From an uncultured Gemmatimonadales bacterium (GTDB taxonomy: Bacteria; Gemmatimonadota; Gemmatimonadetes; Palauibacterales; Palauibacteraceae): 64,000 bases of DNA. A program made the translations under genes and the position numbers. The number at the start of each line of letters is the position of its first letter. The stretch's first letter is position 1. Below, piece by piece: positions 2,493 to 21,450 of this stretch. Where the stretch lies: assembly GCA_963783385.1 (NCBI GenBank), contig CAWANJ010000009.1:672001-736000 (forward strand). Reading direction: 5' to 3'. The notes under the pieces are model-generated. The model was not told where the DNA came from. It saw nothing but the letters and a program-made list of their open reading frames with translations, and did no database searches.

Positions 2493-2519
2493 GTGCGCGA
2501 GTGGGGACGACCGGTCCAG

Positions 2520-2603
2520 TGCCGGAGGTGGGATTCGAACCCACAAGGGCTTTCGCCCAACGGATTTTGAGTCCGTCGCGTATGCCAGTTCCGCCACTCC
2601 GGC
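2520..2603 (-). tRNA. tRNA-Leu(CAA), CCA not encoded
   Basis: GCCGGAG acceptor stem, anticodon arm ACGGA-CTCAAAA-TCCGT, long variable arm GGGCGAAAGCCC, T-loop GTTCGAATC. Confidence 0.97.
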
Positions 2604-2803: not shown

Positions 2804-5800
2804 TCATATGATGCTCTTTCTAGTCACGATCCACCGGTAGGCGACCGGGATGGCGACCAGCACGAACAGGGTGCTGGACAGGAGGCCGCCGATCGTGGCC
2901 AGGGCGAGCGCGTTCCAGATGTTCGAGTCCTGGCTCCCGGCGAACAGGACGAGCGGCAGGAGGCCGAGGACCGTCGTGGCTGTGGTCATGAGGATGGGGC
3001 GCACCCGCTCCAGCGTGCCGCGCAGGATGGCCTCGCGGGTGCCCAGCCCCTCCCGCTCCCGGAGCTCCCCGATGTGGTAGACGACCAGGATGGCGTTGTT
3101 CACCACGATCCCGGTCATCATGATCGTCCCAATGTAGGCCGTGCGCGTGAACGAGGCGTCCGTGTAGAAGAAGACGAGGAACACCCCGATGAGGGCGAGC
3201 GGCAGGGTGAGGAGCACCACGAAGGGCGCCGCCAGCGACTCGAACAGGGCGGCCGTGGTCATGTAGATGAGGAGCACGGCGAAGCCGAGGGCCAGGTAGA
3301 CCTCGCCCTTCTGCTCCGAGGAGAGCCGGAAGGGCTCCTGCTTCTCGATCCGGTAGCCGGGCGGGAGCCGCATCGCGTCCAGCACCGCGTCCCGCTCCAC
3401 GTCGCCGAGCTTGCGGGGTCCGCGGAACTCCCACGCCACGGTGCGCCGGTACTGCTGGTCCTCGCGGACGATCCGCGCCAGGACCTCCTGCCGCCGCACG
3501 GTGGCCACGTCCCCCACATCGGCCTCGCGGCTCCCCGCCCCCCTCACCCGCAGCCCTTCCAGCCCCCGGACGTCGAGGTCCTGGTAGCCGGCCAGCTTCA
3601 CCTCGAGCGGGTACTCCCGGTCCCCCACGTGCACCTGTCCCCCCAGGGCGCCCCCCGGCGCGCTCCCGCTCACGTCGGCGCTCACGTAGTCGAGGAGGTC
3701 CTTCACGGACAGCCCGTAGCCGGCCAGGGCCGCGCGGCGCGGCGCGAGGGCGTACTCGAAGGCCCTGTCCTGCTCGTACCAGGCGCCGCTCGAGTTGGGA
3801 TCCACGTTGCGGATGCGGCTGAAGTGCTTCAGCCGCGCGGCGAGCTGGTCGGCGTAGTCCCGGAGGGCCAGGTAGTTGTAGCCGTACAGGTTCACCGAGT
3901 AGTTGGGGGGAGAGCCGCCGCCCCCGTAGAAGCTGGGCCCGTAGCCGTATACCCGGACGTCCACGCCGGAGAAGCCGTAGCTGTAGGCCACCATGCGCTG
4001 CTTGATGGCCACCGGCACCTGCGTGCGCTCCAGCGCCTTCGGGAAGGTGACCTTGATGAAGGCGTACTGGGGAAGGACGGTCGTCTCGTACCGCTTCACC
4101 TCGGGGAGCGTGGCGAGCTTCGCCTCGAACGAGCGGGTCAGCGCGTCGGTCCGCTCCAGGCCGGCTCCGCGCGGGAAGGTGATCTGGATCGAGATGTACG
4201 TCTGCTGGCCGAAGTAGCTGCTCCAGGTGATGCCCCGGGTGACGTGCGCGTCGAACAGCTTCCAGCTCCCCCACAGCGCCCCCGCGCACACGAGCACGAC
4301 CAGAACGGGGTGGTCCAGGGCCCCGGAGAGGAGCGCCCGGTAGCCGCGCACGTAGAAGGGAGAGGGCCGCCGGCCGGCCGGGCGCGGCGCGCCCTCGGCG
4401 CGCTCGTGCCTCCCGCCGCGTCGCGCCCGCCGCCCCGGTCGGGCCGGCCGTAGCCGTGCCGGGCGCCACGTCCCTCGCCGCGCTCCCCCGCCCTTCCCTC
4501 CAGCCTCCCAGCCGCGCCGCCATGGCGGGCACGAAGGTGAAGGCCACGAACAGGCTGGCCACGATCGAGAAGCCGACGGCGAAGGCGAGCGGCACGTAGT
4601 AGAGCCGGAGCTCCCCCTGCAGGAACAGGAAGGGGACGAGCACGATGGCCGTGGTGGCGGTGGAGGCGACCACGGGGAGGACGACCTGCCGGGCGCCCCG
4701 GATGGCCGCCTCGAGCCTCCCCTCTCCCGCCTCGCGCCGGCGCTCGACGTTCTCCAGCACCACGATGCCGTTGTCGACCACCAGCCCGAAGCCCCACGCC
4801 AGTCCGGCCAGGGTGAGGACGTTGAGGGAGAAGCCTCCCAGGTAGAGGCCGTTGACGGCGGCCAGCACGCTGAACGCGATCGTCCCGAACACGGTGAGCA
4901 CCGCCCCCAGCGAGCGCAGGAACAGCATGAGGACGAGGAAGATCACCGCGGCCGCGGCCAGCGCGCGCAGCCGGAGGTCGGAGAGCTGCGCCTTGATGTC
5001 CTGGCTCTGGTCCTGGTCCAGCTCCAGCGAGGCCCCGGGCGGGAGGAGCGTCGCGGAGCGAGTCCACCTCCGCCTTGACCCGGTCGGCCACGTCGATGGC
5101 GTTGGAGCCCGCCTGCCGGCCCACCTGGAGCGAGACGGTGGGCTGTCCGTCGATCCGGTGGTAGCTGGTGGCCGGCTCCTCCTCGAGGCGCACGCGCCCG
5201 ATGTCCCGGAGGCGCACGGCTCCCTGCGGGCGCGGGAGGACGACCAGCTCCTCGAGGTCGGCGACCGAGGCCGCGCGGGAGCGGATCGACAGGTCCAGGC
5301 GCCGGCCGGAGAGCACGACCGAGCCGGCCGGGCGGGCCTGGTCCAGGGCCAGGAGGCGGGAGCGCACCGCATCGGGCGTGAGCCCGTAGCCGGCCAGCCG
5401 GTCGGGGTCCAGCTCGACGGACAGCACCCGCCGGCGCCCCCCGGTCACCCGGGCGAAGGAGACGCCGTCCATGGACAGGAGCCGCGGCCGGACCTGGTCG
5501 CGCACGGCCTCGGCCAGGCGGGTGGCCGTGTAGGGCCCCCGGACCTGCCAGGAGAGGAAGGGCCGGGTCTGCTGGGAGAACTCGTCCGGCACGTAGGGCT
5601 CGACCGAGGTCGATGGCCCCGGCCGGGAGCTCGTCGTGGAGCGCGGCGACCCGTTCGCCCATGTCGAGCCGCGCGAACTCCATGCGGGTGCCGCGCGCGA
5701 ACTGCACGTCGATCTGGGCCGACGACCCGGTGCCCCGCGGGTCGGCCCGCGAGGTCGAGGTCACCTTGCGCACCCCACCCACCTGCTGGGCCGCCTCCTC

Positions 5801-5995
5801 CAGCGGCGCGGTGACCTGCGACTCGAGCAGCTCCGGCGAGGCGCCCGCCCAGCTCGCGGTCACGGTGAGGCGCGGGTAGCTCACCTCGGGCAGGAGCTCG
5901 ATCGGGATGAGCCGGAAGCTGTAGGCGCCCAGCGCCAGGAGGGCCGCGTACAGCGCCGCCGTGGCCACCGGCCGCCGGACCGAGAGCTCGATCAC
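2804..5995 (-). CDS. RND efflux permease (AcrB/AcrD/AcrF family), second copy; ~3 frameshifts
   Basis: N-terminus MIELSVRRPVAT..LLPEVSYPRL; TM4 GLVVDNGIVVLENV; GIVVNNAILVV; ERVRPILMTT; spread over ORFs 4943..5995, 4138..5592, 2820..5372, 2804..4351. Confidence 0.9.
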
Positions 5996-6010
5996 GCGTG
6001 AGCCTGGCGG

Positions 6011-9000
6011 TCACGCACGGGAGCCATCGGCCGGACCGGCCGGGCCGGCGGCGACACCCGTGGGGGCCACGCCCTCCCCCCGCCCCGCCACCAGCGAGTA
6101 GACGACCGGCACCACGATCAGGGTGAGGAGGGTCGAGGCGGTGAGCCCGCCGATCACGGCCACGGCGAGGGGCGCCCGCAGGTCCGCCCCGGCGCCCCAG
6201 CCGAGCGCCATGGGGAGGAGCCCGAACACCGTGGTCACCGTGGTCATGACGATGGGCCGCAGCCGCAGCCGGCCCGCCTCGAGGATGGCCGCCCGCAGGG
6301 TGAGCCCGGCGGAGCGCCGCTGGTTGATGAAGTCCACCTTGACGATGGCATCGTTCACCACGATGCCGATGAGGATCACGAGCCCGATGCCGCTCATCAC
6401 GTTGAGCCCGTCGCGGGCCACCCACAGGGCCGGCACCGCCCCGATGGCGGCCAGCGGCACGGCGATGAGCACGACGAGGGGCTGGCGCACCGACTCGAAC
6501 TGGGCGGCGAGGATGAGGTAGACGAGGAGGAGGGCGAGCCCGAACGCGAACAGGAGGGAGCGGAAGCTCGCGCGCATCTCCTCGTTCTCTCCCCCACCCG
6601 CACGCTGATCCCGGACGGAGCGTGCAGGCTCGCCAATCGGCTCCGTGCCTCCCCCACCGCGCGCGACAGCCCCGTCCCGGTCACGTCGGCCAGGACCTGG
6701 ACCGTACGCGCCTGGCCGTCGTGACGGATCTCGACCGGCGCGTAGTCGCGGTGCGCCCGCACCAGGGCCGAGAGCGGCACGCCTCCCACCGTGAGGCCGA
6801 GCACGTCGGGGAGGTCGGTGCGCGCGGCGGCCGGAAGCACCACCCGGATCCCGATCTTGCGGGAGAACTCGCTGTAGGGCCGGGTGGTCTGCGCGCCCCG
6901 CAGGTAGGCCTCCACCTGGTCGGCCACCTGGCGCACGGTGAGCCCGTAGCGGGCCACCGCGTCCCGGTCGATGTCGACGGCCAGCTCGGGCTGGGTGCGG
7001 CGAAGGTCGACGCGCGGGTCCGCGAAGTGCGGGCTCCCGGCCAGCCGCGCCCGCGCCGACTCGGCCACGGCCACGAGCTCGTCCAGCCGCTCGCCCTTCA
7101 CCTGGACGGCCAGGTCCGCCTCGCCGGCGCCCAGCGCCCGCCCCAGCGAGCTGGCCCGGCCCGTCTCGAAGGACACGTAGCGCGGGTCGACGCCGGCCGC
7201 CGCGATCCGGCGCCGCACCGAGGCCACGACGTCGCGGGCGGGCGGAGCCCCGGAGGCGAGCTGCACCTCGAGGGCCGCCGTGCTCACGCCGGACAGCTCG
7301 GTGGCCGCGACCTCGGAGCTCCGGGCCCGGCCGACCCGGGAGAACACGCTCTCGACTCCCCTCGTGTCCCGAAGGACGCCCTCGATGCGGGCCGCCGTCC
7401 TCGACGTCACCGGGAGGGGCGTGCCGGTCGGGAGCTGGAGGTCGACGCGGAAGGCGCCCTCGTTCACCCGCGGCATGAGGCTGCGCGGCAGCGTCTCCCC
7501 CAGCAGCACGGCCGCCACCAGGAGGCCGGCCGTCCAGCCGAGGACGACGCCGCGGTGCTCGAGCGACCACTCCAGGGCCGCCTCGTACCGGGCCGCGAAG
7601 CGGCGAAAGCGCCGGTCGAACGCCTCGAACACCGGCCTGGTGACCCGCGAGACGGCTCGCCCCGACGCATGGAACAGCTCCCGGTAGCTGTCCCGCACCG
7701 ACCCGCCCACGAAGCGGAGGCCGCGTGCGGCGGCCCGGCCCGCCGCATCGCTCCATCGCGCCACGACGCGGATCCCCCGGAAGATGCGTCCCCCCGGCGC
7801 GGGGAGCCGGCCCGGGGGCGGCGACCCGCCGCCCCCGGCGCTGCCGGCCGGCGGCGGCACGGGAGTTCCCGCCGTCTCCCGCGTCCCGGCACGACCGGCC
7901 GACCCCGGCCGCCCCGTCCGCGGGGCGGCCGCTCGCCGAACCGGGCCGCCATCACCGGGAGGAGGGTGAGGGCCACCAGGAGGGAGGCGAGGAGCGAGAA
8001 GGCCACGGCCAGCGACAGGTCGCCGAACAGCGCCCCCGCCACCCCCTTCACGTACAGGACCGGCCCGAACACGGCCACCGTGGTCAGCGTGGAGGCCGTG
8101 ATGGCGCCGGCCACCTCGCTGGCCCCGCGCGAGGCCGCCCGGCTGGGCGCCGGCCCCCTCCTCCTCCCGGTGCCGGAACACGTTTTCCAGCACGACGATC
8201 GAGTTGTCGACCAGCATCCCGACCCCGAGCGCCAGGCCGCCCAGCGACATGACGTTGAGGCTCACGTTCGCGAAATAGCACAGCGCGAACGCGGCCAGCA
8301 CCGAGATCGGGATCGAGAGGCCGATGGCCACCGGGTAGCGGGGATCCCGCAGGAACAGGAACAGGACCAGGAAGGCGAGCAGCCCGCCGAGGAGGAGCGA
8401 CTGCACCACGTTGGAGATCGCCTGGCGGATGAACACCGCCTGGCTCGAGGCCACGGTCAGGTGGATCCCCGGGATACTCGGAGCGGAGCTGGTCCAGCGT
8501 GGCCCGCACCTGGCCCGCCACCCGCACCGTGTTGGTGCCCGACTCCTTGTAGACCTGGAGGCCGATGGCCGGCTGGCCGTCGAAGCGCGACACCGTCTGC
8601 GCGTCGGCCACCGTGTCGAGCACGGTGGCCACCTGGTCGAGCCGCACCGCGGCCGGCGTCCCCGCGGAGCCGCCCCGGCCGCCGCTTCCCGGCCGGCCGC
8701 TCCCCGCCGCGCCGCTCCCGCGGCCCGCGGCTCCGCCTCCGGGCCCTCCCTCCGGGCCCACGGTCACCTCACGGAGCTGGTCCACGTCGGTGAACTGGCC
8801 CACGGTGCGCAGGCTGTACTGGAAGCGGCCCCGCCGGATCATGCCGCCGGGGGCGCTGTAGTTGGCCTGGTCCAGCGCGCTCGTGATGTCGGAGAGCGAC
8901 AGGCCGTGCGCCTGGAGGCGGCCTGGATCCACCACGACCCGGAGCTCCCGCTCGGGCGCCCCCGTCACGGCCGCCAGCGCCACCCCGTCCAGCTGCTCGA

Positions 9001-9487
9001 GGCGCCGCTTGAGCACCGTCTCGGAGAGCTGCGCCAGCGGCTCCAGCCCCTCGCCGGTGACCGCCACCGTGAGGATCGGGTCGCTGGTCGGGTCCGAGGT
9101 GAGGATGTCGGGCCGGTCGGCCGTCTCGGGGAGCGAGTTCCGGAGGTCCTCGAGCTGCTCGCGCACGTGCAGGGCGGCGAATTCCATGTCCGTCCCCCAC
9201 CCGAACTGGAGCCGCACGAGGGACTGGCCCTCGCGGGAGGTCGAGGTGACCCGGCGCACGCCCGGCACCCGGCCCAGCTGCTCCTCGATCGGGTCGGTCA
9301 CGTAGCGCTCCACCTCCGTCGGACCCGCCCCCCGGTAGGTGGTCCACACCGACAGCGTCGGGAAGGCGATGTCGGGGAGGAGGTCGATCGGGAGGCGCAC
9401 GAAGGAGACGATCCCGAGGACGGCCACGGCCACGTAGAACATCGACGTGGCCACCGGCCGCCGGATGGAGAGCTCCGGGAGGCTCAC
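6011..9487 (-). CDS. RND efflux permease (AcrB/AcrD/AcrF family), first copy; ~4 frameshifts
   Basis: GTG overlaps the TolC stop; LSIRRPVAT..LPIDLLPDIAFP; GMLVDNSIVVLENV; GIVVNDAIVKVD; RLRPIVMTT. Confidence 0.9.
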
Positions 9488-10875
9488 CGGCCGCCGCCCA
9501 CCAGCGCCTCGAGCCTGGCCCACGCCACCCGCGCGTCGTGGAGCTCCTGGGCGACGGCACGGTCGGCCGAGGTGGCCTGGTCGATCACCGACTGGAGTTC
9601 GATGAAGTTGAGCGTGCCCAGACGGAACTGTTCCCGGGCCAGCGCGACCCGCTGGCGCGACAGTTCGGCCACCTGTCGCTGGAGCCCCAGCCGATCCTGC
9701 CGGCGCTTGACCTCGGCCACCAGGTTCCGCACGTCCCGCTCGATCTCGTGGGACTTCTGGGCGTGGCTGGCCAGGGCCTGGTTCTCCGCCACGGCGGCCT
9801 GGGCGGCCTGCTGGTGGCGCGTAAAGCCGTTGAACAGGTTCCAGCGCGCCGACACGAAGAAGCCGTTGCTGTGGTCGCTGGGATTGAACGTGAAGAAGCT
9901 TCCCGACGGACCCAGCGCCTCGGAGCGCGAAAGATCGAGGCCCACGCTGATCGTGGGCAGGTACTGGCTGCGCGCCGACCACTCCCTGGAACTGGCGGCC
10001 GCTGCGTCGGCCTTGAAGGCGAGCAACGCCGGGTTCTCGCCGAGCGCCCGCCGAACGAGCGCGTCCGCATCGAGGGAATCGGCGTCCGGCAGCGAGCCGA
10101 CGTCGTGGAGGGCGATGCCCACGGGCAGCGTCCCGGGTCGACCCATGTCCACTTCCAGCTTCCTGACCGCGTCGCGGGCCGCACCGCGCGCGTCGGCCAA
10201 CGCCAGCTCCGCCTGACGCACCTGGACCTGCGCTCCGAGCAGATCGCTGCGGTCCACGGCTGCGATCTGGTACCGCCTCCGCGTCACGTCGAGGTCCTGG
10301 CGGCGCGCCTCAAGCTGGGCGGCCGCCATGTCGGCCAATCGCTGCTCGAGCAGGGCGGCGAAGTAGGACTGCTTCACGGTCGAGACCGCCGTCCGCTCCG
10401 CGTCAGTGAGCCGGAGTCCGGCGGCCCGACCCTCCGAGGCCGTCGCCCCGAGCTCGGCGAACCGTCGTCCACCCCGCAGGAGGTCCAGGCTGAACGAGAG
10501 ACCCTGGGAAGAGAACTGGGTCACCGAACTCACGTTCTGGGCGACCCGCCCCGGCACGCCAAGAGAGTCCTGGAAGGTCGCCCTCGTGGCACTGGTGCGA
10601 CTCAGCCTCAGATCGGCGGTGGCCGTCGGCAGGAACGCCCCCCATGCGGCCAGGCGGTCGGCGGCGGCACCGGACAGTGCGGCGCGCTTCGAGGCAATGT
10701 CGGGACTCTTCTGCAGCGCCCCCTGGATGGCGGCGCCCAGGGTCAGCGTGTCGGCGGGCGCCGAGCCCGAGTCGGCCACCGTCGGGGCCAGGCCCGGCGT
10801 ACCTTGCTGAGCGCTCACCGGCGCCGACAGGAGGAGGAGCGCGAGCCACGGCGCCACGGCGCTCCTCCTGGTCAT
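9484..10875 (-). CDS. TolC-family outer membrane efflux protein
   Basis: Signal peptide MTRRSAVAPWLALLLLSAPVSA; LTLGAAIQGALQKSP; two OEP-like repeats (AFLPT/QYLPT); ATGA overlap with the adaptor gene. Confidence 0.88.
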   Translation of the reverse strand: MTRRSAVAPWLALLLLSAPVSAQQGTPGLAPTVADSGSAPADTLTLGAAIQGALQKSPDIASKRAALSGAAADRLAAWGAFLPTATADLRLSRTSATRATFQDSLGVPGRVAQNVSSVTQFSSQGLSFSLDLLRGGRRFAELGATASEGRAAGLRLTDAERTAVSTVKQSYFAALLEQRLADMAAAQLEARRQDLDVTRRRYQIAAVDRSDLLGAQVQVRQAELALADARGAARDAVRKLEVDMGRPGTLPVGIALHDVGSLPDADSLDADALVRRALGENPALLAFKADAAAASSREWSARSQYLPTISVGLDLSRSEALGPSGSFFTFNPSDHSNGFFVSARWNLFNGFTRHQQAAQAAVAENQALASHAQKSHEIERDVRNLVAEVKRRQDRLGLQRQVAELSRQRVALAREQFRLGTLNFIELQSVIDQATSADRAVAQELHDARVAWARLEALVGGGR

Positions 10876-12212
10876 CGGCCAGCTCCGCTTGCGGCGCTCC
10901 GCCTGCCTCCACTGGCCGTGCTCCGGTCGCCGTCGGCGGCCGCGGTCGGACCACCTCCCCCGGCCGCCGTCCGGCCCGGTGCGCCAGCCGTCGCCCCACC
11001 ACCCCCGATCACCAGGCTGTCGGCGTTGGTGAGCCGCACCTTGGCGTCGTGCACCAGCGTCTCCTGCCCCTCGGTGAGCACGATCTCGCCGGGCGCCAGC
11101 ATCTCCTGGTTCGTGCCGGGCTCGGGCGGGAGGATCTCCACGTAGCGGTCGTTGGTGAGGCCCGTGTGCACGTACTTCCACTCGGCGCGGCCCGTGGCGC
11201 TCCCCGAGTCGTCGGGGGCGAACACGAACACCACGTCGCGCCGGTCTCGCTCCACCACCGCCTCGCGCGGCACGAACGTGCGCCCCGCGTACAGCTCGCC
11301 CGCGATTCGCACGCTCGCCGACATGCCGGGGACGATATGGGCGCGCGGGTTCTCGAGCCGCACCGTGACCCGCGCCGTGCGGCTGTCGGGATCGACCACC
11401 GGATTCACGGTGAGGAGGCGGCCGTGGAAGGTCTCGCCCGGCAGGGCCGAGAAGGTGGCCGTCGCCTCGCGGCCGGGCGCCAGGTGGGGGAGGTCGGTCT
11501 CCAGGACCCCGACCTCGACGTCGACCTCCGAGAGGTCGAGGACGGCGGCCACCGAGTCCCCCTGCCCCACGCGCGCCCCCGCCTGCACGGCCAGCCCCGC
11601 CACCATGCCCCGGAAGGGCGCCCGCAAGGTCGTGTGCTCGAGCTTGTAGCGCGCCTTGGCCACCTGGACCACCGCCCCGGCCAGGCCGCTCCGGATGCGG
11701 GCCTGCCGCCGCCGCTCTCGCCGCAGCGAGTCGTTCTGCATCTGCTCGTCGAACAGGGTCCGGTTCAGGTAGTCGGCCGCCGCCTTGGCGCTGTCCGCCT
11801 CCGCCTGCTCCAGGTCGAGCGCGTAGGTGGTCGTGTCGAGCCGCGCCAGCACCGCGCCCGCGGGGACGGCCTCTCCCTCCCGCACCGGCACCGCCAGCAC
11901 CTGGCCCTCGACCTGTTCGGTGCGGATCGTGGCCGACCGCCGCGGCTCGGCGCGCCCGTCCGCCTTCACCCACTCCACGAACGTGTCCTTCCGCACGGCT
12001 CCCCCGCGCACCGGCACGGCCACGTCGGCCGCGAACGCCGAGGAGGCGGCCTCCGAGCGGATGGCGGCCTTGACCGAGTCGGACCCGGAGGCGGCGTCCG
12101 TGCTGTCGGCGGCCGCGCCGGAAGCGCCGGCCCGGATCCGCCACAGCACGCCGCCCAGCAGGAGGACGAACACCAGGGTGACGACGAGCGCGACGACGTG
12201 GCGTGTCTTCAT
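10872..12212 (-). CDS. RND periplasmic adaptor (membrane fusion protein)
   Basis: N-terminal TM; VREGEAVPAGAVLARLD; TTLRAPFRGMV; VNPVVDPDSRT; PGMSASV. Confidence 0.92.
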   Translation of the reverse strand: MKTRHVVALVVTLVFVLLLGGVLWRIRAGASGAAADSTDAASGSDSVKAAIRSEAASSAFAADVAVPVRGGAVRKDTFVEWVKADGRAEPRRSATIRTEQVEGQVLAVPVREGEAVPAGAVLARLDTTTYALDLEQAEADSAKAAADYLNRTLFDEQMQNDSLRRERRRQARIRSGLAGAVVQVAKARYKLEHTTLRAPFRGMVAGLAVQAGARVGQGDSVAAVLDLSEVDVEVGVLETDLPHLAPGREATATFSALPGETFHGRLLTVNPVVDPDSRTARVTVRLENPRAHIVPGMSASVRIAGELYAGRTFVPREAVVERDRRDVVFVFAPDDSGSATGRAEWKYVHTGLTNDRYVEILPPEPGTNQEMLAPGEIVLTEGQETLVHDAKVRLTNADSLVIGGGGATAGAPGRTAAGGGGPTAAADGDRSTASGGRRSAASGAGR

Positions 12213-12287
12213 GGGCGGCGTCCCATCGTGGGGTCGGCTAGCAGGTCGGCTCGAACCTCGAACGTCCACGGAATCTTCAAGAATCCC

Positions 12288-13532
12288 TCATCGTGGGGGC
12301 GAGCCCGCCCCCCGGTCCAGGGTCATGACGACCACGTACGGGACCCCGAGATCGTCCGTGATCACCGTCACGATGCGGTCGCCGGTCACGACCGTCGTCC
12401 AGGGCTTCATCTCCACGGGAGGATGCAGGGCGCCCAGGTATGCTCCACGAGGGTTGAACAGGTCCCACGCCGGCGTCGCTCCTGCCTCCTGGAATGGCCG
12501 CACCCACAGGTAGCCGGCGCTGTCGACCAGGAGGTTCCGGATGGCGGGTTTGTGGTCCGGGATCTGGTCCGGATGGACCGTCCCGCCCTGCTTCGTGAAG
12601 TAGGCCAGTCTCGCGATGGCGCTGTCCCGCTCGCTGCCGCTGACCGGGACCGCCCGGTAATCCCGGTCGATCTCCCGGAGGGTGTCGCCGGCGGGTCCGA
12701 TCTCGACCAGCCGGTACGGGGACCCGAGACCGATCCACAGGTGCCCGCCCGGGCCGACCGTCCAGCTGGCCCTGGGGGCAAACGGCACATCCACCGAGGT
12801 CATGCCCACCACCTTCCCTCCCGACCGGACCGTGTGCGTCCAGGGCGCCAGCCCGCCAGGCCGGCTCGGCATGGGCAGCGTGTCCACCGGCGTCAGGGCG
12901 CTGTCCTCGATGACGATGCCCTGGCTGTCGACGCTGAACCCGGTGAAGATGGCCTGAAACCATCGTGAGCCGCCGAAGAAGCCGCACCGACACGGGAAGA
13001 AGGAGCTATGGGCCTGGTGCTCGGAAACGACCCTGCCGGCGGTGTCGAAGACCGTGATCCGTGTGTTCTTCGGGTCCATGACCCACATGCGTCCGGCGGG
13101 GCCCCGGGAGATCCCGGTGAGGGCCTTGAACTCCCCGGGCCCTCCGCCCTCGTGTCCGACGGTCCGGACGAAGCTCCCGTCCGGGTCGAACACGCGGACC
13201 TCCTTCGCCTGCCCGTCGGCCACCCACACGCGCCCCAGGGGATCGAGCGCGAGGCCGATCACTCGGCCGAAGGAAGCCGGCGTCCCGCCCTCGCGGCTGC
13301 CGATCCGGGCCAGGACCCGGACCTGCCAGGCGCTGTCGAGGTCCGTGATGCCGCGGGCCGGATTCCGGACGACGATGCGGCCGGACGGGAGGGTATCGAT
13401 CCGGGCCCTCCGCGTGGAACCGGTTCCACCGGCGCAGGCGGTACCGACCAGCGACGCGAGGAGGAGCGGCAGGAGACGCGTCACGCTCCCCGGTCGGCGG
13501 ACACCGGCGGCGCTCGAGGTCTCCGCGCTCAT
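12288..13532 (-). CDS. 6-bladed beta-propeller (NHL-like) lipoprotein
   Basis: Lipobox-like GTAC; LDPLGRVWVADGQ; GHEGGGPGEF; C-terminal DDLGVPYVVV. Confidence 0.82.
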   Translation of the reverse strand: MSAETSSAAGVRRPGSVTRLLPLLLASLVGTACAGGTGSTRRARIDTLPSGRIVVRNPARGITDLDSAWQVRVLARIGSREGGTPASFGRVIGLALDPLGRVWVADGQAKEVRVFDPDGSFVRTVGHEGGGPGEFKALTGISRGPAGRMWVMDPKNTRITVFDTAGRVVSEHQAHSSFFPCRCGFFGGSRWFQAIFTGFSVDSQGIVIEDSALTPVDTLPMPSRPGGLAPWTHTVRSGGKVVGMTSVDVPFAPRASWTVGPGGHLWIGLGSPYRLVEIGPAGDTLREIDRDYRAVPVSGSERDSAIARLAYFTKQGGTVHPDQIPDHKPAIRNLLVDSAGYLWVRPFQEAGATPAWDLFNPRGAYLGALHPPVEMKPWTTVVTGDRIVTVITDDLGVPYVVVMTLDRGAGSPPR

Positions 13533-14823
13533 CGAGCGTCCTTCTTCACCCAGGGGTAGAGGACGACCCTCTGCACACCGAGATCGTCCCGGGTGCGGCC
13601 CAGGACGAAATCCGGTCCCACCTGCAGGACGTGGAGGCCCGCCGGGGCCGTGGCCACCGCGACCAGCGAGCCGTCGGGCGCGAGGACGATCCAGCGGCCG
13701 ACGCCCTCCGGGTCGGGGCTCGACTCCTTCACCCACACGTCCCCCGAGGCGCCGACCTTCAGGTCCGCGAAGGCGGGAAGCGTGTGACGGGGCGTGGCTT
13801 TCCGGATGTGCTCGACCACCTGTTTGGCGAAGCGGCTACCCGCCGCACCGGGCATCTGGCTCAGCTCCCGCTTGACGTCCGCGATGCGCCGCTTCCGCTG
13901 CGCCGAGATCTGCCGATCGGTCACGGCCCTCGGCGCCCGGTCCATGCGGATCCGCACGCGCAGCTTCCCGCCGGGATCGAGCGCGTCGAACTTCCAGCGG
14001 GCATCGTCTCCAACGTAGACGCGTTCTCCGGCGGCGGCCACATGCGAGGCTCGCCCGAACAGCACCGCATTGGCCTGGAAGGTGCCGTTCGGATGGCTCA
14101 CCTCGGTCTCCCGCCCGGGCACCGAAATGAGCGTGTCGGGGGCCGACGATCCGGCCGAGCGGAGAAGCACGGCCTCGGTGTCCCGGTGGACGCCGTCGGC
14201 GGCGCTCATCATCGCCTGCGGCGAGATTCCCGCGCTCGTCGCCACGCGATCGCCGTCCACGACGCCATACAGCTGAGCCAGGCTCATCGTCCCCGATGCC
14301 GAGTGGAGCGTGAAGCCTCCCGCGAACGCGCCCGCCGACGTGAACAGGACGAGGTGGAGGGCGAGGGGGTCCCAGGCGCGACCGTGTCCCCGGGCAACAT
14401 GACCAGCTTCTGCAGGGCCCGGAATTCTTGCGGACCGCTGCCCTTCCCTCCCGCCGTCCACAGGTGGCGTCCCCTCGCGTCGAACGCCCGCAGCTCGCCC
14501 GCCTGGCCGTCCGCCACGACCACGCCGCCGTCCGGCAGACGGACGGCGTCGACGACCCGGCCGAACGCCTGCGGTCCGCCCCCCTCCGCCTTGCCCAGCC
14601 GGAGCGCCGGCTCATCCGCGACCGTCCATTCCGGAAGGTGCGGGGCGGACTTCGAGGCACCGGCGAGCCCGTACGGCACCGGATCCGTGACCAGCGTCAC
14701 GCCCGCGCTGTCCCGGCGCGTGGCGGTCGCGACCCCGGAGGCGTCGCTCTCGCCGCCGCAGGCCACGAGAGAGCCCAGCGCGCTGACGGCGAGGAGCGCG
14801 GCCACGCGAGACCCCGCCCTCAC
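13529..14823 (-). CDS. 6-bladed beta-propeller lipoprotein; frameshift ~14380
   Basis: LVACGG lipobox; RRDSAGVTLV; GGKGSGPQEF; C-terminal DDLGVQRVVLY; GTG preceded by GGGGAG; stop overlaps the next ATG. Confidence 0.78.
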
Positions 14824-14953
14824 GACGCTCCCCGCACGACCCGGTACTTCGTGACCCAATGGATGTCGAGCGGGCCCCTGCTCACGGCGGCGATCGGGCC
14901 ACCCGGGAGAAACGTCCCGGGCCGAGGGGGGTCGGCCCGAAGGGTGCCTGGTA

Positions 14954-16211
14954 CACCTGCTCGGAAGTTCGATCACGTATGTTACGCTGCGAGGCGCGCG
15001 TGAGCGTCGTAGCGAGCCAGGAGCTGGTCGAGGTCGGCGCGGGTGAACCTCCAGTCGGAGGGACGAGCGACGGCCTCGTGATGCTCCTGAAAGCCGAGGA
15101 GGCGCTCGCGAGCGGCCTCGAAGCAGGTGCAGTCGTCAGGTGTCCAGGCTTTGCGCGCGACCACGGAGAAGTAGATCTCGATTTGGTTGAGCCAGCTGGC
15201 ATGAACGGGCAAATGCACGAGGTGCAGAGGAGGCCAGCGGCTCTCCAAGCGCTCGATCGCACGCCGGCCGCGATGGATGCCGCCGTTGTCGACGATCCAG
15301 AAGACGCGGTGTGCCCAAATGCAGGGCTCCTCGAGCATGACGTGGGCCACCAGCCGGTCGAAGGTCTCGATGGTCGAGCGGGGGGGACCACGTGGCCGAA
15401 GAGACGGGCCTGGTGAACATCCCAGGCGGCCTGATAGGCACAGGTGCCGTGACGCCGATACTCGTGTTCGACGCGCATCGGGCGGCCCGGCCCCGGTGGC
15501 GTCGAGGGGTGGCGCCGCTCGCGGATCTGGAGCTGGGTCTTCTCGTCGGCGCTCAAGACGAAGTCCGCCTCGCCCAGGGGCTCACCCTGCCACCTGCGGT
15601 GCTGGAGGTCGAGCACAACGGCGGCCTTCTCAGCGAACCGGGGATCGCGAGGGAAGATCCACCTCGCCGGCTCCACGGCCGGATCGCATCCGCATCGAGC
15701 CAGCGCCAGATCGTCGAGCCGGAGATCTCGGCCACAATCCCCTGGCGCAGCACCTCGCGCCGGAGCTCTTCTCGGCTCCACCTCGAGAGGGGCCGGCCCG
15801 ACGCGGCCGGCAGGCTGCAGGCCAGCGCCTTGACCTCACACACGATCCGAGGGGGAAGAACCCGGGGGGCGTCCCCGGCGCGGCTTCTCCTCCAGCCCGG
15901 CCATGCGCCGTTGGTAGAACCGCTTCCGCCACTTGCTCGCCACCTCCCGGGGGAGGTCCAGTCGCTCTCCGATTGCTTTGTTCTCCAAGCCCTCGGCCGC
16001 GAGCAGGATGATCTTGGCCCTCACGACATCCCGATACGGCAACGTATACCGGCGGCTCCGCCGCTCCAGGGTCTCCCTCTCCTCCCGCGTCAGATCAATG
16101 GTGTACGGGCTTTTCCGCGGCATCGTCCCCTCCACCCTGAGTGTGAGGAAGCGATACCGCCGAGCCCCTGGTTGCGCCAGATCTATACGTGATCATACTT
16201 GTGGCAACGCG
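14954..16211 (-). mobile_element. IS630-family insertion sequence
   Basis: Imperfect 30-nt inverted repeats including the flanking TA: GTACacctgctcggAAGTtcGATCACGTAT (14951-14980) vs the reverse complement of 16185-16214; TA on both sides; transposase inside. Confidence 0.88.
14982..16123 (-). CDS. IS630-family transposase, split over several frames
   Basis: HTH part RAKIILLAAEG..KWRKRF; DDE segments SADEKTQLQ, VDNGGIH, HASWLNQIEIYFS. Confidence 0.9.
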
Positions 16212-16307
16212 TACCAGATACTCTCCCTGCGGCGACAGGACGTCGATCGGCCCGGGAGTGCCGCGACCGATGACCTTCCGCTGGATCCACACCGTGCCGT
16301 CCGGCGC

Positions 16308-16609
16308 AGGGTAGTCTTGCTATGCTTCGTTTGGTCAAGAACACCATCAAACGCAAAACCCAGCAATTCGATTTGCCGGCGCTCTTGTCGTGTCGGCCGC
16401 CGGTTCAGAATCAAACGCACAGCATCTGGATCTTTCACTTTCAACCCCTGCCACATCAGCATATTGGGGTCGCAACTCAGGCACCTAGCCGGATCATAGA
16501 GCACGACAATTGTGGAATCGTCAGAAACGAGATCGCGCACCGTCGTGCCCGAGACCAGGAGCGGCTCAGAACGACTGCAACCGCATATGCACACTCCAGC
16601 GACGAGCAC
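16308..16609 (-). pseudogene. truncated putative lipoprotein with CxxC (thioredoxin-like)
   Basis: VLVAGVCICGCS signal/lipobox-like; VVLYDPARCLSC; runs into the orphan propeller 3' end at ~16308; start uncertain. Confidence 0.45.
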
Positions 16610-16642
16610 CCACAGGCCCCGTCTGGATCCAGAATGCCGCGA

Positions 16643-17716
16643 TCATCGACTGCCGTCGGTCGAAAAGACAAAGACCCTCTCACCGTTGTCCGCCATCACG
16701 AAGAACCGACCTCCGTGGTCATCCACCGTCAAGGCCCCGGGAGACGACACCCCATGAAGGCTCAGGCGCCCATCGAGATGGCCTGTCCCGGAGGCGAACT
16801 GCCATACGATGGCGGAGTCGGCGTCCGGCGAGCTCAAGAGCCAGACCTCCTCGTCCTTCTCGGCGAGCTCGAGATCGGCGAAGAGTCGGTAGGGATGTAT
16901 CCGTCGGGGATTCGGCTCGTTCAGGTTCTGGGCCCTGTACGCTTCCAAGAGCTTCGTGAACAACGGATCGTCCAGCGTCGTCCCCCAAACCAGCGTCGAA
17001 TCGCGCGAGTACTTCCTCAACCACCCGGCGCCCAGAGAGGCGACGTACACATCTTCCGAGGCGTCCTGTGCTACCAGCACGTTGTTGGCGAACAGCTGGG
17101 GCAACTCGTGACGGGCCACCTCGCGCTTGAGATCCGTCGGAGAGAGGGGAAGAGGAAGCGGCGGTACAGGTACCAGACTGCCCAGTCTCCCGGTGGAGTC
17201 ATGGAGTGTGAGCAAATGGCCGTCGAATCCGCCTGTAGGGTTGAGCACCATACCCGTCGGGCCCAGCGCCGTGTTGGTTGAATAGGCACGAGCCTCGAGG
17301 GGAAAAGAACGGCCATCCGCGCAGTTCGAGGACACGAGGAGGATACGGCCATTCCCACTGTCGACGATCCAGAGGCGATCACCCAGGACTTCCAGGGCCG
17401 TGGGACTGCGTACTTCGTTCGGTCCAGACCCGGTCGCACAGATGACCCGCGAACTCCGCGTGGCCAGATCGATACGGATGATCCTGCTGCCGACACCATC
17501 AGCAACGAACAAGGCTCTACGAGCGGGCCACAGGACCATGTCAGCCGCGAACCCGAGCCACAGTTTCGGGGGCAGTTGAAGGCTATCGACCGGGAAGATC
17601 ACCTCGGTGGAAGGTGAAGGAGCGGGTGGCGGCCGTCGCCCCTGGCACCCGACCAAGGCTATCGGCAGCAGAAGGAGACGAAGGCGCAGGGGTAGGTGTC
17701 TCGTCCTGCGCCTCAC
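16643..17716 (-). CDS. divergent 6-bladed beta-propeller lipoprotein (lower GC)
   Basis: LLLLPIALVGC lipobox; LFVADGVGSRI; GSGPNEVRSPT; LWIVDSGNGRI; uninterrupted ORF; GTG 17716 is the likely start. Confidence 0.75.
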   Translation of the reverse strand: MRRRTRHLPLRLRLLLLPIALVGCQGRRPPPAPSPSTEVIFPVDSLQLPPKLWLGFAADMVLWPARRALFVADGVGSRIIRIDLATRSSRVICATGSGPNEVRSPTALEVLGDRLWIVDSGNGRILLVSSNCADGRSFPLEARAYSTNTALGPTGMVLNPTGGFDGHLLTLHDSTGRLGSLVPVPPLPLPLSPTDLKREVARHELPQLFANNVLVAQDASEDVYVASLGAGWLRKYSRDSTLVWGTTLDDPLFTKLLEAYRAQNLNEPNPRRIHPYRLFADLELAEKDEEVWLLSSPDADSAIVWQFASGTGHLDGRLSLHGVSSPGALTVDDHGGRFFVMADNGERVFVFSTDGSR

Positions 17717-17919
17717 AGGTTCCGGTAGCTGCGAGTCGGCAGCCGTAGGGCATGGGCGAAGCGGTGTTCGAAACAGCCGGGCTGCCTCGTATGGGTCGCG
17801 AGAGAATTCCTCATTCGGCACTGCACGCCCACTCGCACGATGGGTCTGCAGCGCCCGATCTCAAGCCGCCATCTCCATGCCCCGAACGTGATTCGATCCC
17901 ACAAACTTCCACGATTTTG

Positions 17920-17949
17920 ATTCTAATCCCTCCCAACGATTGTCGTCAA
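17920..17949 (-). promoter_or_regulatory. sigma70-type promoter of the low-GC cassette
   Basis: TTGACG (17949-17944)-N18-TAGAAT (17925-17920). Confidence 0.6.
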
Positions 17950-17959
17950 GCCCTCGACA

Positions 17960-18061
17960 GATCGAGCCGCTCCACCCCGGACGCGCTTCCCTCCCGCCGC
18001 AGACTCCGAAGGTCGTCGCGCCGAAGGAGAGGAGCGCGACCGTCCACGACCAAGCCCTCAT
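17960..18061 (-). pseudogene. truncated 5' end of another lipoprotein gene
   Basis: ATGA overlap with the upstream stop; MRAWSWTVALLSFGATTFGVCGG resembles the array signal peptides, then runs into lower-GC sequence. Confidence 0.4.
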
Positions 18062-19246
18062 GAGGCCGAGCGCTCGATCCGGTACTCCGTGACCCGTTCC
18101 ACGCCGAGCGAGTCCTTGGCCACGGCCGCCACCCGCCGACCGGGGAGGAAGGCGCCCGGCAGCGGCGTGCCCGCCGGCAGCGTGCCCAGGTACTCTCCCT
18201 GCGGCGAGAGGACGTCGATCGGCCCGTGCGCGTCGCGCCCAACGACCTTGCGCTCGATCCACACCGAGCCGTCCGGGGCGAGCGCCAGCTTGGCGATGAC
18301 GGGGATGGAGGACTGCGGCGCCCGCCTTGCTCACCACCTCGTCCGCCTTGCACACCCGGGGGCTCCCTCCCCCGACCCCGATGGGCAGGCCGTCACCGAG
18401 GTCGCGGCGGGCCAGCGCCTCGCTGGCCGGCCGGGGCCGGATGTCGCGGCGGTACGAGGCCACCAGCGAGTCGCCGCGGAACCGGTCTACGACATATTCG
18501 GCGCCGTCCGTCGCCACGACCTCGTCGCCGCGGCCGGCCCACCGGATGCGCGGGGTGAACACCGGTTGCATTCGAAGGCCGATCCCGCAGCTCGTGAACA
18601 TGGCCACCGGAGGGCAAGCCGAGGCTCTTGCGGGCCAGCTCCGTCGTGTCCCGTCCCGCGACGCGCAGGAGGCGACGGACCACCGAGTCACGCCGCGTCA
18701 CGTCCTGGAACACGCCCACGAACCCCCTCGGCGTCGCCATCGGGGCTCCCCACGCGAAGATGGACAGGTGGCGGGAGGGGAGCGGCTCGCCCGACGGAGC
18801 GTAGCCGACGAACCCCTGGAAGCGCTCGTCGTAGACCCGGACCGACCCGTCCGGCCGCACGGTGATCGAGAAGGGCATGGAGAGCTCGCCGGGACCCTGC
18901 CCGGCCTCCCCCTCGGTGCGCACCAGGTCGCCCCTTCGGGCCGAAGACGACGACCCGTTTGTTCCCCTCATCCAGCACGTACAGGTCGCCCGCCGAGTCC
19001 GCCCCCAGCCCCGCCACCTGGAAGAACGACTCGGGTCCCGACTCGGCCCCTCCCACCGTGAACAGCGGCTTCAGGGTCCAGGCGAGGGGCCGGTCCGCGC
19101 CGGACGTTGCGCACGATCGCGACGCCGGCGGAGTCGGTGCGGGCGGAGGTCGCCGACCCGCCGTCCGATCCGCCACACGCGCTGCCGAGCACGCCGAGGC
19201 TGGCGAGGCCGATTGCCGCGAGCACGGCTGTACTCCGGATCCGCAT
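18058..19246 (-). CDS. 6-bladed beta-propeller lipoprotein; several frameshifts
   Basis: MRIRSTAVLAAIGLASLGVLGSACGG; RTDSAGVAIV; DSAGDLYVLDEGN; GEAGQGPGEL; C-terminal DSLGVERVTEY. Confidence 0.8.
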
Positions 19247-19439
19247 GGGCACGATCCCGCAGGAGGGGACGGCTTGTCCGGGAGATTCGGAAAAAAATGG
19301 GTGGACTGCGGGGGGACCGGCAAGCGGACGGCCGCCCCGGGGCGGCGATGGGTCGGGCCGATTCGGGCGGACCGGCGGGGAGGGCACCCGGAGCCGATCC
19401 GCCCGCGCCGGAGTCAGGCGGAGATCGTCGGAGGAGCGC

Positions 19440-19842
19440 TCAGGAGGCGGGAGCCGGCTTCTCCGCCCGCGTCCGACTCCGCAGCGCCCGGAGCCCGAAC
19501 CACAGCAGGAGGGACGACGCCAAGCACGAGAAAGCCGAAGATGCTCGTGGTGAGCGAGACCTTGAGGCCGCCCCACAGGAGCGCCGGCTGGACCCCGCCC
19601 CGCGCGGTCACGCGCTCGGCCACGTTCGCCATCATGGCCCAGCCGACCAGCGTGCCGAGGACGCCCAGCACGGCGCCCAGTCCTCCCCAGGCGAGCACGA
19701 TCCCGGGCTCGGCCTCCGCCGCGCCGCGGCCCCGGCCGGCCCACATCTTCCACCCCTCCTGCGCGGCCGCGCCCACCACGAGGACCGCCGTGCCGAGGAT
19801 CGGCCACATCATCACGCCTCCGTCCCTGAACCACTCACTCAT
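19440..19842 (-). CDS. small MotA/TolQ/ExbB-like membrane protein; probable frameshift near the C-terminus
   Basis: MSEWFRDGGVMMWPI; LGVLGTLVGW; LWGGLKVSLTTSIFG. Confidence 0.65.
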
Positions 19843-20653
19843 CGGATGTCTCCTTCGGTAGAGGTTCGAAGCTCGCGAGCCCCGCGCGGGACCGGGCGAG
19901 AGCCCGATGCCGTCCGCCAGGGCTTCCCGCACCGCGTCGCGCGCCCGCTCGACCGCCCGGGCCCGCCGCCGGAGCAGGAGCCACACGCCGGCGAGCACCA
20001 GGGCCGACGTGAGCCCCAGGGCGCCCAGGCCCGCCGCCTTCGCGATCCCGTGCCACAGGGCCGTCCGGCCCCGTGCGGCCGTGCTCCGCGGCGCCGGCGA
20101 TCCCGGCCAGGACGACCAGAGCGCCCAGCGCGCTCGTCGTGAGGCAGGCCATGGCCAGGCCCGGCAGGACGCGGAGGCTGGCGACGGGGTGGGCCGTGAT
20201 CCGGCGCGGCCGCACGAACAGCGCGAGGCCGTGCGCCAGGCCCGCCCCCGCTCCCAGCCCCGCCAGGGCGAGGACCGCCCACGTCCACGGGGACGGCTCG
20301 GCGGCCACGGGGGACCGCCACACCGCGTAGGCGCCCACCGCCGCCGCGAGCGCCGCCACCAGCACGACGAGGGCGCTCTCCAGCCGGTGCGCCCCCGCGC
20401 CCGCCACCCGGTCCAGCACTCCCGCCATCCGGGAGCCGTGCGTCCGGCCCATCTCGGCCAGCACCTCCGGGGAGGCGCCCAGGAGGCGCACGGCGCGCTC
20501 GCGCGCCTCCTCCTCGTCCAGCCCCCGCTCCCGGTAGCTGCGGTAGAGGTCCTCGAGGTCGGAGGCCATCTCGAGCAGGATCCGGGAGCGGCGCGGCTCC
20601 GGGACCCGGAGCCCGGCCTCAGCCCTCCGCAGGACGCGCTCGAAGACTTCCAC
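19839..20653 (-). CDS. membrane protein with N-terminal HAAS/permease-prefix-like helical domain; frameshifted
   Basis: GGAGG RBS + GTG; RRSRILLEMASDLEDLYRSYRERGLDEEEARERAVRLLG followed by ~4 hydrophobic segments. Confidence 0.65.
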
Positions 20654-20982
20654 GCCTGACCTCCTCGAGGATGTCCATGAGCCGGTCGAACACGGCCGAC
20701 AGGCTGCCCGCCTCCTCCCCCAGCTGGCGCCGCCCCGCCGCCGTGAGGTGATACTCCTTCCGGCGGCGGCCTTCCTCCGTCCACCGACCCTCGATGGCGC
20801 CCTCCTTCTCCAGCCGGTGGAGGATCGGGTACAGGGTCCCGTGCTGGAGCTCGAACGCTCCCCGGGTGTCCTGCTCGACGTCGAGCGCGATCTGGTAGCC
20901 GTGCTTCGGCCTCCTCCCGGAGGCTCGACAGCACCAGCAGCTCGTTGATGCGGCGACCGACGGTCTGCGTGTCCAGCGACAC
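20619..20982 (-). CDS. PadR-family transcriptional regulator; frameshift ~20910
   Basis: INELLVLSSL, KHGYQIALDVEQ, HGTLYPILHRLEKEGAI, RRKEYHLTAAGR. Confidence 0.88.
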
Positions 20983-21014
20983 CGGGCTCCCTCCCGTTGG
21001 TGAGAGGATCTTTA

Positions 21015-21052
21015 TATAGATCATCTATACTATGGTGCGTTCCGGGCGTCAA
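21015..21052 (-). promoter_or_regulatory. padR promoter with overlapping palindromic operator
   Basis: TTGACG (21052-21047)-N17-TATAGA; perfect inverted repeat TATAGAT-C-ATCTATA at 21015-21029. Confidence 0.65.
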
Positions 21053-21188
21053 CCCGGGTCGGACTAGGGCTCCGGGCACGGAAAAGGACGGGGGTGGAGG
21101 AGCGCGGCAGGCGGCGCGGAATGACCGCGGGGGGCAACCACGGGGAGACCGAGGCGCTCCACGGCGAGGTGGAGCCGACACGCGAGAG

Positions 21189-21259
21189 AGGCGCCGTCCG
21201 GATTCGAACCGGAGTAGGGGGCTTTGCAGGCCCCTGCCTAGCCACTCGGCCACGGCGCC
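21189..21259 (-). tRNA. tRNA-Cys(GCA), CCA not encoded
   Basis: GGCGCCG acceptor stem, anticodon arm GGGGC-CTGCAAA-GCCCC, T-loop GTTCGAATC, U discriminator. Confidence 0.97.
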
Positions 21260-21450
21260 GTCCCGTACAGGGTAGGACGACGGGCGCGCCGCGAAAAGCC
21301 CGGTGCGATCGTCACGCGCGCGGGTCCGGCCGCCTGTCGCGGGCGCGCCGGCGCGCCTATACTGCCCGCTCGGGCGGTCCGGCCGGGCTGCGGGCTCCAC
21401 CGCCGGCCGCCCCCGATGACGCCGAGCCCGCCCCGTCCGAGCCGGAGCCT

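Follow-up and report, generated by a model that had tools for sequence, protein, structure and literature searches.

We analysed a 64,000-nucleotide stretch of the genome of an uncultured Gemmatimonadales bacterium (assembly GCA_963783385.1, contig CAWANJ010000009.1, positions 672,001-736,000; this whole stretch is termed here the window) and studied in it a block at 2804..21052 that holds a padR gene, two membrane-protein genes, a row of beta-propeller lipoprotein genes and an RND efflux operon. A sequence-only reading of the same DNA had proposed that these parts form a single envelope module. Its description of the layout stands: codon-phase analysis of third-position G+C (GC3) indicates minus-strand coding across the whole of window 1-21011, so that everything from padR to the last RND permease lies on one strand, and the five ATGA/GTGA overlaps that it listed (19842/19839, 14823/14820, 13532/13529, 10875/10872 and 9487/9484) are present in the sequence. 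The single module itself does not stand, and we consider it likely that the block consists of three separately inherited units that adjoin one another in a variable slot behind a tRNA-Cys gene, with its many frameshifts as errors of the assembly. The first unit would be a self-contained operon of padR, a HAAS/perm_prefix protein with four transmembrane (TM) segments and a MotA/ExbB-like protein of 133 amino acids (aa) with three; the second would be a strain-variable row of exported NHL-type six-bladed propeller lipoproteins, whose make-up a low-GC insertion and an IS630-like element have altered; and the third would be a conserved tripartite RND efflux operon of adaptor, outer-membrane channel and two permeases. 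Our comparisons drew on G003, a genome of the same genus that is 96% identical to the window and served as frame reference for its indels, on L036, a metagenome contig with clean frames that is 95-96% identical and served as second indel reference, on G001, another genome of the genus, and on the neighbourhoods of homologs of the pump's membrane fusion protein (MFP) in relatives (19 loci).

The upstream unit opens with padR (20619..21024, minus strand, start at 21024 or ~20982), whose product scores 81 bits against Pfam PF03551 in the window (cut-off 27; the clean copy L036:3930-4331 reaches 84 bits). Just upstream of padR, beside and overlapping a promoter-like TTGACG-17-TATAGA, lies an AT-rich palindrome with perfect 7-nt arms, TATAGAT-N-ATCTATA (21015..21029), which is identical in L036 and which we regard as a probable candidate for the PadR operator; different AT-rich palindromes precede padR in L037, L094 and L096. 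The second gene (19839..20653, minus strand; 270 aa in clean copies) encodes a HAAS/perm_prefix_1 N-terminal helical domain followed by four TM segments, termed here HAAS-4TM. Its N-terminus scores 35.7 bits against NCBIfam NF038403 (perm_prefix_1; cut-off 30), S61 and P62 are invariant and G59 nearly invariant in its alignment, and the L036 copy is 100% identical to a protein (P0008) named 'permease prefix domain 1-containing protein' in its source record. These scores favour the earlier pairing of PadR with a membrane partner that is probably of the HAAS type; Pfam scans of the HAAS-4TM protein gave no DUF1700 (HAAS) match, and the equation of perm_prefix_1 with HAAS rests on the FtsX-fused example in the main text of Ravi et al. 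(PMC11237479). The third gene (19414..19842, minus strand), whose ATG overlaps the HAAS-4TM stop (ATGA, 19842/19839), encodes the mini MotA/ExbB-like 3-TM protein of 133 aa in clean copies, with a false C-terminus in the window due to an extra base at 19514.

The description of this last gene product as MotA-like was well founded: a profile of 19 family members searched against solved structures gave 13 matches to MotA, TolQ, ExbB and PomA (E from 6.7e-6 to 0.014) over the TM2-TM3 hairpin, with best values of 6.7e-6 for MotA, 7.7e-5 for TolQ and 5.4e-4 for ExbB. Against Pfam PF01618 (MotA_ExbB) the protein scores 16.5 bits in the clean copy and 12.9 bits in the window, and so fails the cut-off of 22.9, and orthologs at more distant loci pass it with 24.8-45.5 bits. 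A Foldseek search with a model of the protein returned nothing at E<=0.001, with solved stators filling most of the top rows at E>=0.1. The family is small (seven clusters in a word-indexed search), and the closest clusters in the Atlas are ~128-aa MotA_ExbB proteins from Bacteroidota. Like known stators, the mini protein has the TM2-TM3 hairpin with the motif ..wGg.a.vlG.LGT.vG.., but it is only 133 aa long and lacks the large cytoplasmic domain, and where TolQ has its glutamate in GIAEAL, the mini protein has G-l-k-v-s-L, comparable to MotA's GMGKAL. Judged by these sequence comparisons, it belongs to the MotA/TolQ/ExbB superfamily. A partner of the ExbD/TolR/MotB type (PF02472) gave zero matches across the loci that carry the trio, its sole occurrences being in L068 and L069, two distant loci from Rhodothermales; genes of the TonB/TolA type are likewise absent from the trio loci. 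Complex prediction for the TM region of the HAAS-4TM protein (residues 80-245) with the mini protein scored 0.00, which gives no answer and counts as neutral evidence.

The three genes keep each other's company far more faithfully than that of their neighbours in the block. At every locus with upstream DNA present, padR lies directly upstream of the HAAS-4TM gene, so that the pair moves together, and all three genes occur together in L036/L061, L037, L038/L062, L042, L043, L045/46, L065 and others. A profile search with HAAS-4TM found six further genomes, all six with padR adjacent and five with a tblastn match to the third gene; in the sixth (L095) the third position is taken by a 136-aa open reading frame (ORF) of the right size with no tblastn match to the mini protein. 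Among 81 genomes sampled across the order, 15 encode the HAAS-4TM protein (8 of 28 genera), and we encountered the trio in Gemmatimonadota only. Among the 18 loci where the gene downstream of the trio is visible, that gene is a propeller in three (L036/L061, which is the window's own lineage, L037 and L042); the other 15 have an insertion sequence (IS) element, a tRNA-Ser gene, an ABC transporter, a peptidase M16 gene or a convergent gene, and no propeller or RND gene. The parts are also far apart elsewhere: in the complete genome G024 the trio lies at 4.086 Mb and the MFP gene at 4.460 Mb, 375 kb away, and in G013 the trio sits midway along contig C3, with a propeller array and RND pump on contig C23. 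In G001 the row runs from a tRNA-Cys gene through a MotA-like gene and a propeller remnant of 210 aa to the MFP gene, and padR and the HAAS gene are absent. At two loci (L043 and L066, two Gemmatimonadota records) the trio is embedded among 12-15 clustered tRNA genes.

The efflux operon at the other end of the block comprises, all on the minus strand, the MFP gene (10872..12269, with a probable ATG near 12212; TIGR01730 174 bits, cut-off 94.9; Pfam HlyD_D23), a TolC-like outer membrane factor (OMF) gene (9484..10875; Pfam OEP 143 bits, with TIGR01844 and TIGR01845 below their cut-offs), and two ACR_tran permease genes, RND-A (6011..9487, in six pieces in the window) and RND-B (2804..5995, in four), both intact in G003 and G001. 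MFP and OMF overlap by ATGA (10875/10872) and OMF and RND-A by GTGA (9487/9484), and the two permeases are ~37% identical to each other. An ACR_tran permease, an RND adaptor and an OEP channel thus lie in one operon, as in tripartite RND (HAE1) pumps, and the MFP-TolC-RND-RND series with tandem permeases was read correctly from the sequence. Orthologs of all four genes, at 60-67% identity, are present in each of the seven same-family genomes examined downstream, the seventh having its RND-B cut by a contig end, and the operon also occurs in one of three sister-family genomes. In eight genomes of other genera, a conserved, divergent gene of 649 aa is followed in order by tRNA-Cys, a Na/Ca-exchanger gene (PF01699) and MFP, and these eight loci contain no PadR, MotA-like or propeller match. 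In G013, four propeller genes lie upstream of MFP and one downstream of RND-B. G026, G024 and G022 have propeller matches 4-6 kb upstream of MFP, but with other genes in between, some of them divergent, and we did not treat these matches as linked to it.

The slot between tRNA-Cys/Na_Ca_ex and MFP varies further in content. In G005 (L027) and G011 (L028) it is ~8.5 kb long and holds a second tRNA-Leu(CAA), together with a BlaI-like repressor and an M56-TonB_C-Plug gene in G005 and a TonB-dependent receptor in G011. These varied contents mark the slot as a recurrent insertion site.

Between the trio and the pump lies the propeller array, again on the minus strand throughout. P1 (12288..13532; 414 aa, lipobox GTAC) is intact, and its start/stop junction with P2 is a 4-nt ATGA overlap (13532/13529). 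P2 (13529..14823; lipobox LVAC) is intact in G003 and L036 and lacks one base in the window. Upstream of it is the 3' remnant of a P4-like gene, P5 (14820..14970), whose stop overlaps the P2 start (GTGA, 14823/14820) and whose translation, ending ...GPLDIHWVTKYRVVRGAS before the stop codon, resembles the C-terminus of P4; at 16196..16642 the 5' piece of this disrupted gene is joined to a small ORF that is lipoprotein-like. P3 (16643..17821), low in GC and propeller-like, has an intact frame and a promoter-like site at 17949-17920, and P4 (18058..19238; 393 aa in L036, signal MRIRSTA..LGSGC) has five frameshifts in the window. The earlier count of four full-length propeller genes therefore holds for P1 and P3, which are open in the window, and not for P2, with its one frameshift, or for P4; that three of them end in D[D/S]LGV is right (TDDLGV in P1, RDDLGV in P2, KDSLGV in P4), with P3 lacking such a tail. 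L-x-x-C motifs after hydrophobic stretches, read by eye, are present in P1-P4 and in P3b, an additional gene of L036.

An AlphaFold2 model of P1 (pLDDT 86) is a six-bladed NHL-type propeller with a helical insert at residues 299-314, and Foldseek with this model found NHL domains at E ~1e-14 as well as the Bacteroides exported protein BF0058 (4raa). P1 scores 30.6 bits against DUF5128 (PF17170; cut-off 22.9) and 22.7 bits against NHL; P4 reaches 21 bits against NHL and 18.4 bits against DUF5128 (below the cut-off of 22.9); and Pfam has no match for P2 or P3. A protein 94% identical to P1 carries the source name '6-bladed beta-propeller'. With the DUF5128/NHL propeller proteins (BF0058, PDB 4raa), P1 thus has in common its type of fold, weak sequence matches and a putative lipoprotein-type signal peptide as read by eye, and the differences are its helical insert and the failure of P2 and P3 to match any Pfam model. 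At least 837 proteins belong to the family at E<=1e-5 in a word-indexed search, many of them named '6-bladed beta-propeller', and P4 has 641 cluster representatives at E<=1e-30. All but one of the 81 genomes of the order (80) have members of the family, with as many as 28 matches in a single genome, and the genome studied here has seven to eight additional copies in contexts unrelated to RND pumps.

P1 is 26-28% identical to P2 or P4, and the array members are, as judged by sequence identity, old paralogs, except for the P4-like P5 and for P3, of which an 80%-identical copy exists in a low-GC island on contig C1 of the same genome. At the P3/P5 position L036 has ~1.7 kb more, including P3b, a low-GC NHL-like gene, so that strains 95-96% identical differ in the array by one gene. 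Given these strain differences and the relations among P3, P5 and P3b, the array is a fast-changing set and not a fixed list of components. The contig C1 region that holds the P3 copy (C1:756000-769000, locus L029; G+C 57-60%) encodes an N6 methylase, two TIR/ThsB-like proteins, DUF3800, Nmad2, a 5-hmdU DNA kinase-like protein and MazG_C, followed by a DDE transposase, and looks like a defence and DNA-modification island.

Two features that the sequence-only reading did not report have shaped this array. An IS630-like element (~14971..16194, minus strand; Pfam DDE_3, HTH_32 and HTH_23; ends GATCACGTAT / ATACGTGATC) splits P5, and a low-GC stretch at ~16000-18000 (GC 0.60-0.63, in a genome of ~71-72% G+C) holds P3. 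The IS630-like element has one copy in this genome and is also present in G003, in L036 (10433-11644) and on a contig of the public sequencing run X6. In all three copies compared (window, G003 and L036), its transposase is read in two to three frames and meets an in-frame stop beyond the HTH part, and the element is either decayed or dependent on recoding. The element (15000-16199) and the TolC-like gene (9500-10900) are 99.8-100% identical to G003, with flanking genes at ~96%, and these islands of identity suggest that strains have recently exchanged DNA or that metagenome bins were cross-assembled. A joint from 13209 to 16306 in runs X3 and X4, considered as a strain without P2 and the IS, was set aside because its support was too weak (side 30), and the ORF L009:3-1145 ('G003up'), considered as a gene upstream of the IS in G003, is most likely an antisense shadow of a DDE_Tnp_1_4 transposase.

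Two tRNA genes, likewise unreported in the sequence-only reading, bound the block. It is bounded upstream by tRNA-Cys(GCA) (21188..21259, minus strand; ARAGORN, and Rfam RF00005 at 61 bits), which forms the upstream edge of the variable slot and precedes it in relatives as well, and downstream by tRNA-Leu(CAA) (2519..2603, minus strand; ARAGORN and Rfam). Beyond the former, a protein of 580-650 aa is encoded at window 21300-23043 on the plus strand, divergent from tRNA-Cys in most family relatives at 33-65% identity, for which Pfam and NCBIfam have no match.

Several observations weigh against treating the three units as independent. An alternative would be a supra-operon restricted to this lineage, in which PadR and its HAAS partner would sense an envelope signal and derepress both the propellers and the RND pump, with the lipoproteins acting as periplasmic accessories of the pump in capture or shielding. 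All parts are co-oriented with little spacing, 4-nt overlaps join P5 to P2 and P2 to P1, and only ~75 nt separate the P1 stop from the likely MFP start, so that read-through into the pump is plausible. The order of trio, propeller(s) and MFP is common to the window, L036 and, in reduced form, G001; propellers lie beside MFP/OMF operons in two other lineages (G013, and G022 with one right after the TolC gene); and two propeller paralogs of this genome adjoin other exporters, one an ABC-2 transporter and the other a PadR gene with an FtsX permease. However, trio, propellers and RND genes are unlinked in most relatives, genomes with 10 to 28 propeller copies mean that chance adjacency to some efflux operon is not rare, and the IS and the low-GC insertion, with P3 and its own promoter-like site, stand between the trio and P2. 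We therefore judge the supra-operon unlikely. The sequence-only reading had itself named a lack of co-conservation among relatives as the finding that would overturn it, and since the synteny survey shows that trio, propellers and RND genes are not co-conserved, the idea of a single system is not supported. P2 and P1 are probably translated and transcribed together and may read through into MFP; the stop/start overlaps and the short gap before MFP make it probable that in this lineage both are expressed along with the pump, as a local arrangement and not as a conserved system.

The broken frames raise a different alternative, namely that the locus is truly decaying, with pump, P2, P4 and trio as pseudogenes left after IS activity. 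Relative to G003 and L036 the block has ~21 unbalanced single-base indels, mostly +1 insertions in the window: four in RND-B (4400, 4423, 5051 and 5613), five in RND-A (6593, 7906, 7935, 8140 and 8474), one in P2 (14379), five in P4 (19248, 19103, 18934, 18610 and 18314), and those of the trio at 20907 in padR, 20064 and 19880 in the HAAS-4TM gene and 19514 in the MotA-like gene. So many indels in 18 kb, with none in OMF, MFP and P1, and an IS630 insertion in the same block are what decay would leave, and the uneven density (zero in those three genes against ~21 elsewhere in the block) is awkward for an explanation by assembly error, as is the one public run (X6) among four in which no correcting indels appear at the places given below among the rows listed. 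However, nearly all the indels add a single base and every shifted piece keeps its full GC3 signal; a tRNA-synt_1 family aminoacyl-tRNA synthetase gene elsewhere in the genome (read in three frames), hypF and other RND genes (two of five split) are also frameshifted in the same 9-contig assembly; and near-identical DNA in other assemblies is free of the frameshifts. The block is covered by assemblies of four public runs, each from a different study, and they hold correcting indels at 5051 and 6590 in three of the four, at 5611 in two, and at 19105, 19248, 19300, 19326, 19382, 19516 and 19880 in two; at 4398, two of the four have a 22-base difference with the same effect on the frame. Because relatives and public assemblies lack the frameshifts, and because the synthetase gene is split as well, the frameshifts are very likely consensus errors of the assembly, and true decay of the locus is highly unlikely.

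At the start of the window, hypF (6-1763, minus strand), which encodes acylphosphatase, zf-HYPF, Sua5/YrdC and HypF_C domains, is interrupted by an in-frame stop at 1083-1085 and shows ~7 single-base insertions at 1071-1426 relative to G003, which looks like a local cluster of assembly errors.

With the block divided into a trio, a propeller array and a pump, each can be set beside what is known. The pump is a conventional tripartite exporter that resembles MdtABC in having an adaptor and two tandem HAE1-like permeases, a pairing conserved across the family, but its OMF gene lies inside the operon, between adaptor and permeases, and its permeases score far under the cut-offs of the MdtB and MdtC equivalogs (NF007798, 413 against 1584; NF007905, 439 against 1774), which places it outside that orthologous group. 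By analogy, the conserved tandem pair probably forms a mixed trimer, as a heteromeric pump. In the literature searched, with most subscription journals outside the search, we found nothing on DUF5128, the permease prefix domain, propeller lipoproteins of Gemmatimonadota, or NHL lipoproteins in RND efflux operons.

The trio is closest to the dyad of HAAS and a PadR-like winged helix-turn-helix (wHTH) protein proposed by Ravi et al. (mSystems 2024; PMC11237479), in whose main text HAAS is listed as fused both to 4-TM domains that are uncharacterised and to permeases of the FtsX/MacB type (the perm_prefix class). As in the dyad described there, the gene directly behind a free-standing padR encodes a multi-TM membrane protein whose N-terminus probably forms the three-helix signalling domain. 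However, the trio adds a third conserved gene, the 133-aa MotA/ExbB-like one with its ATGA overlap, and its motif is G-A-S-P and not GxP; MotA, ExbB and TolQ are nowhere mentioned in that main text. Following the published model, PadR would repress its own promoter by binding the AT-rich palindrome, and the N-terminal helical domain of the membrane protein would hold or release PadR. The trigger for release would come from the membrane part of HAAS-4TM, probably together with the mini MotA/ExbB protein, sensing a membrane-linked signal. A more specific version would make the trio an undescribed three-component membrane-signal switch, in which a minimal stator-like protein makes the HAAS sensor respond to a state of the membrane, such as envelope stress or proton-motive force, and so controls the release of PadR, and which in this genus would also gate the propellers and, by read-through, the RND pump; we hold this to be rather unlikely, and propose it tentatively.

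Cumulatively, these results indicate that the proposed envelope system fails as a unit and should not be catalogued as one, and that an assembly with this many single-base insertions will yield false pseudogenes in any annotation. In this order the six-bladed propeller lipoproteins form a large family of paralogs that changes fast. As a version of the HAAS-PadR dyad the trio is modestly new, with its conserved third partner from the MotA/ExbB superfamily, and it offers a small, tractable example for the still untested dyad model.

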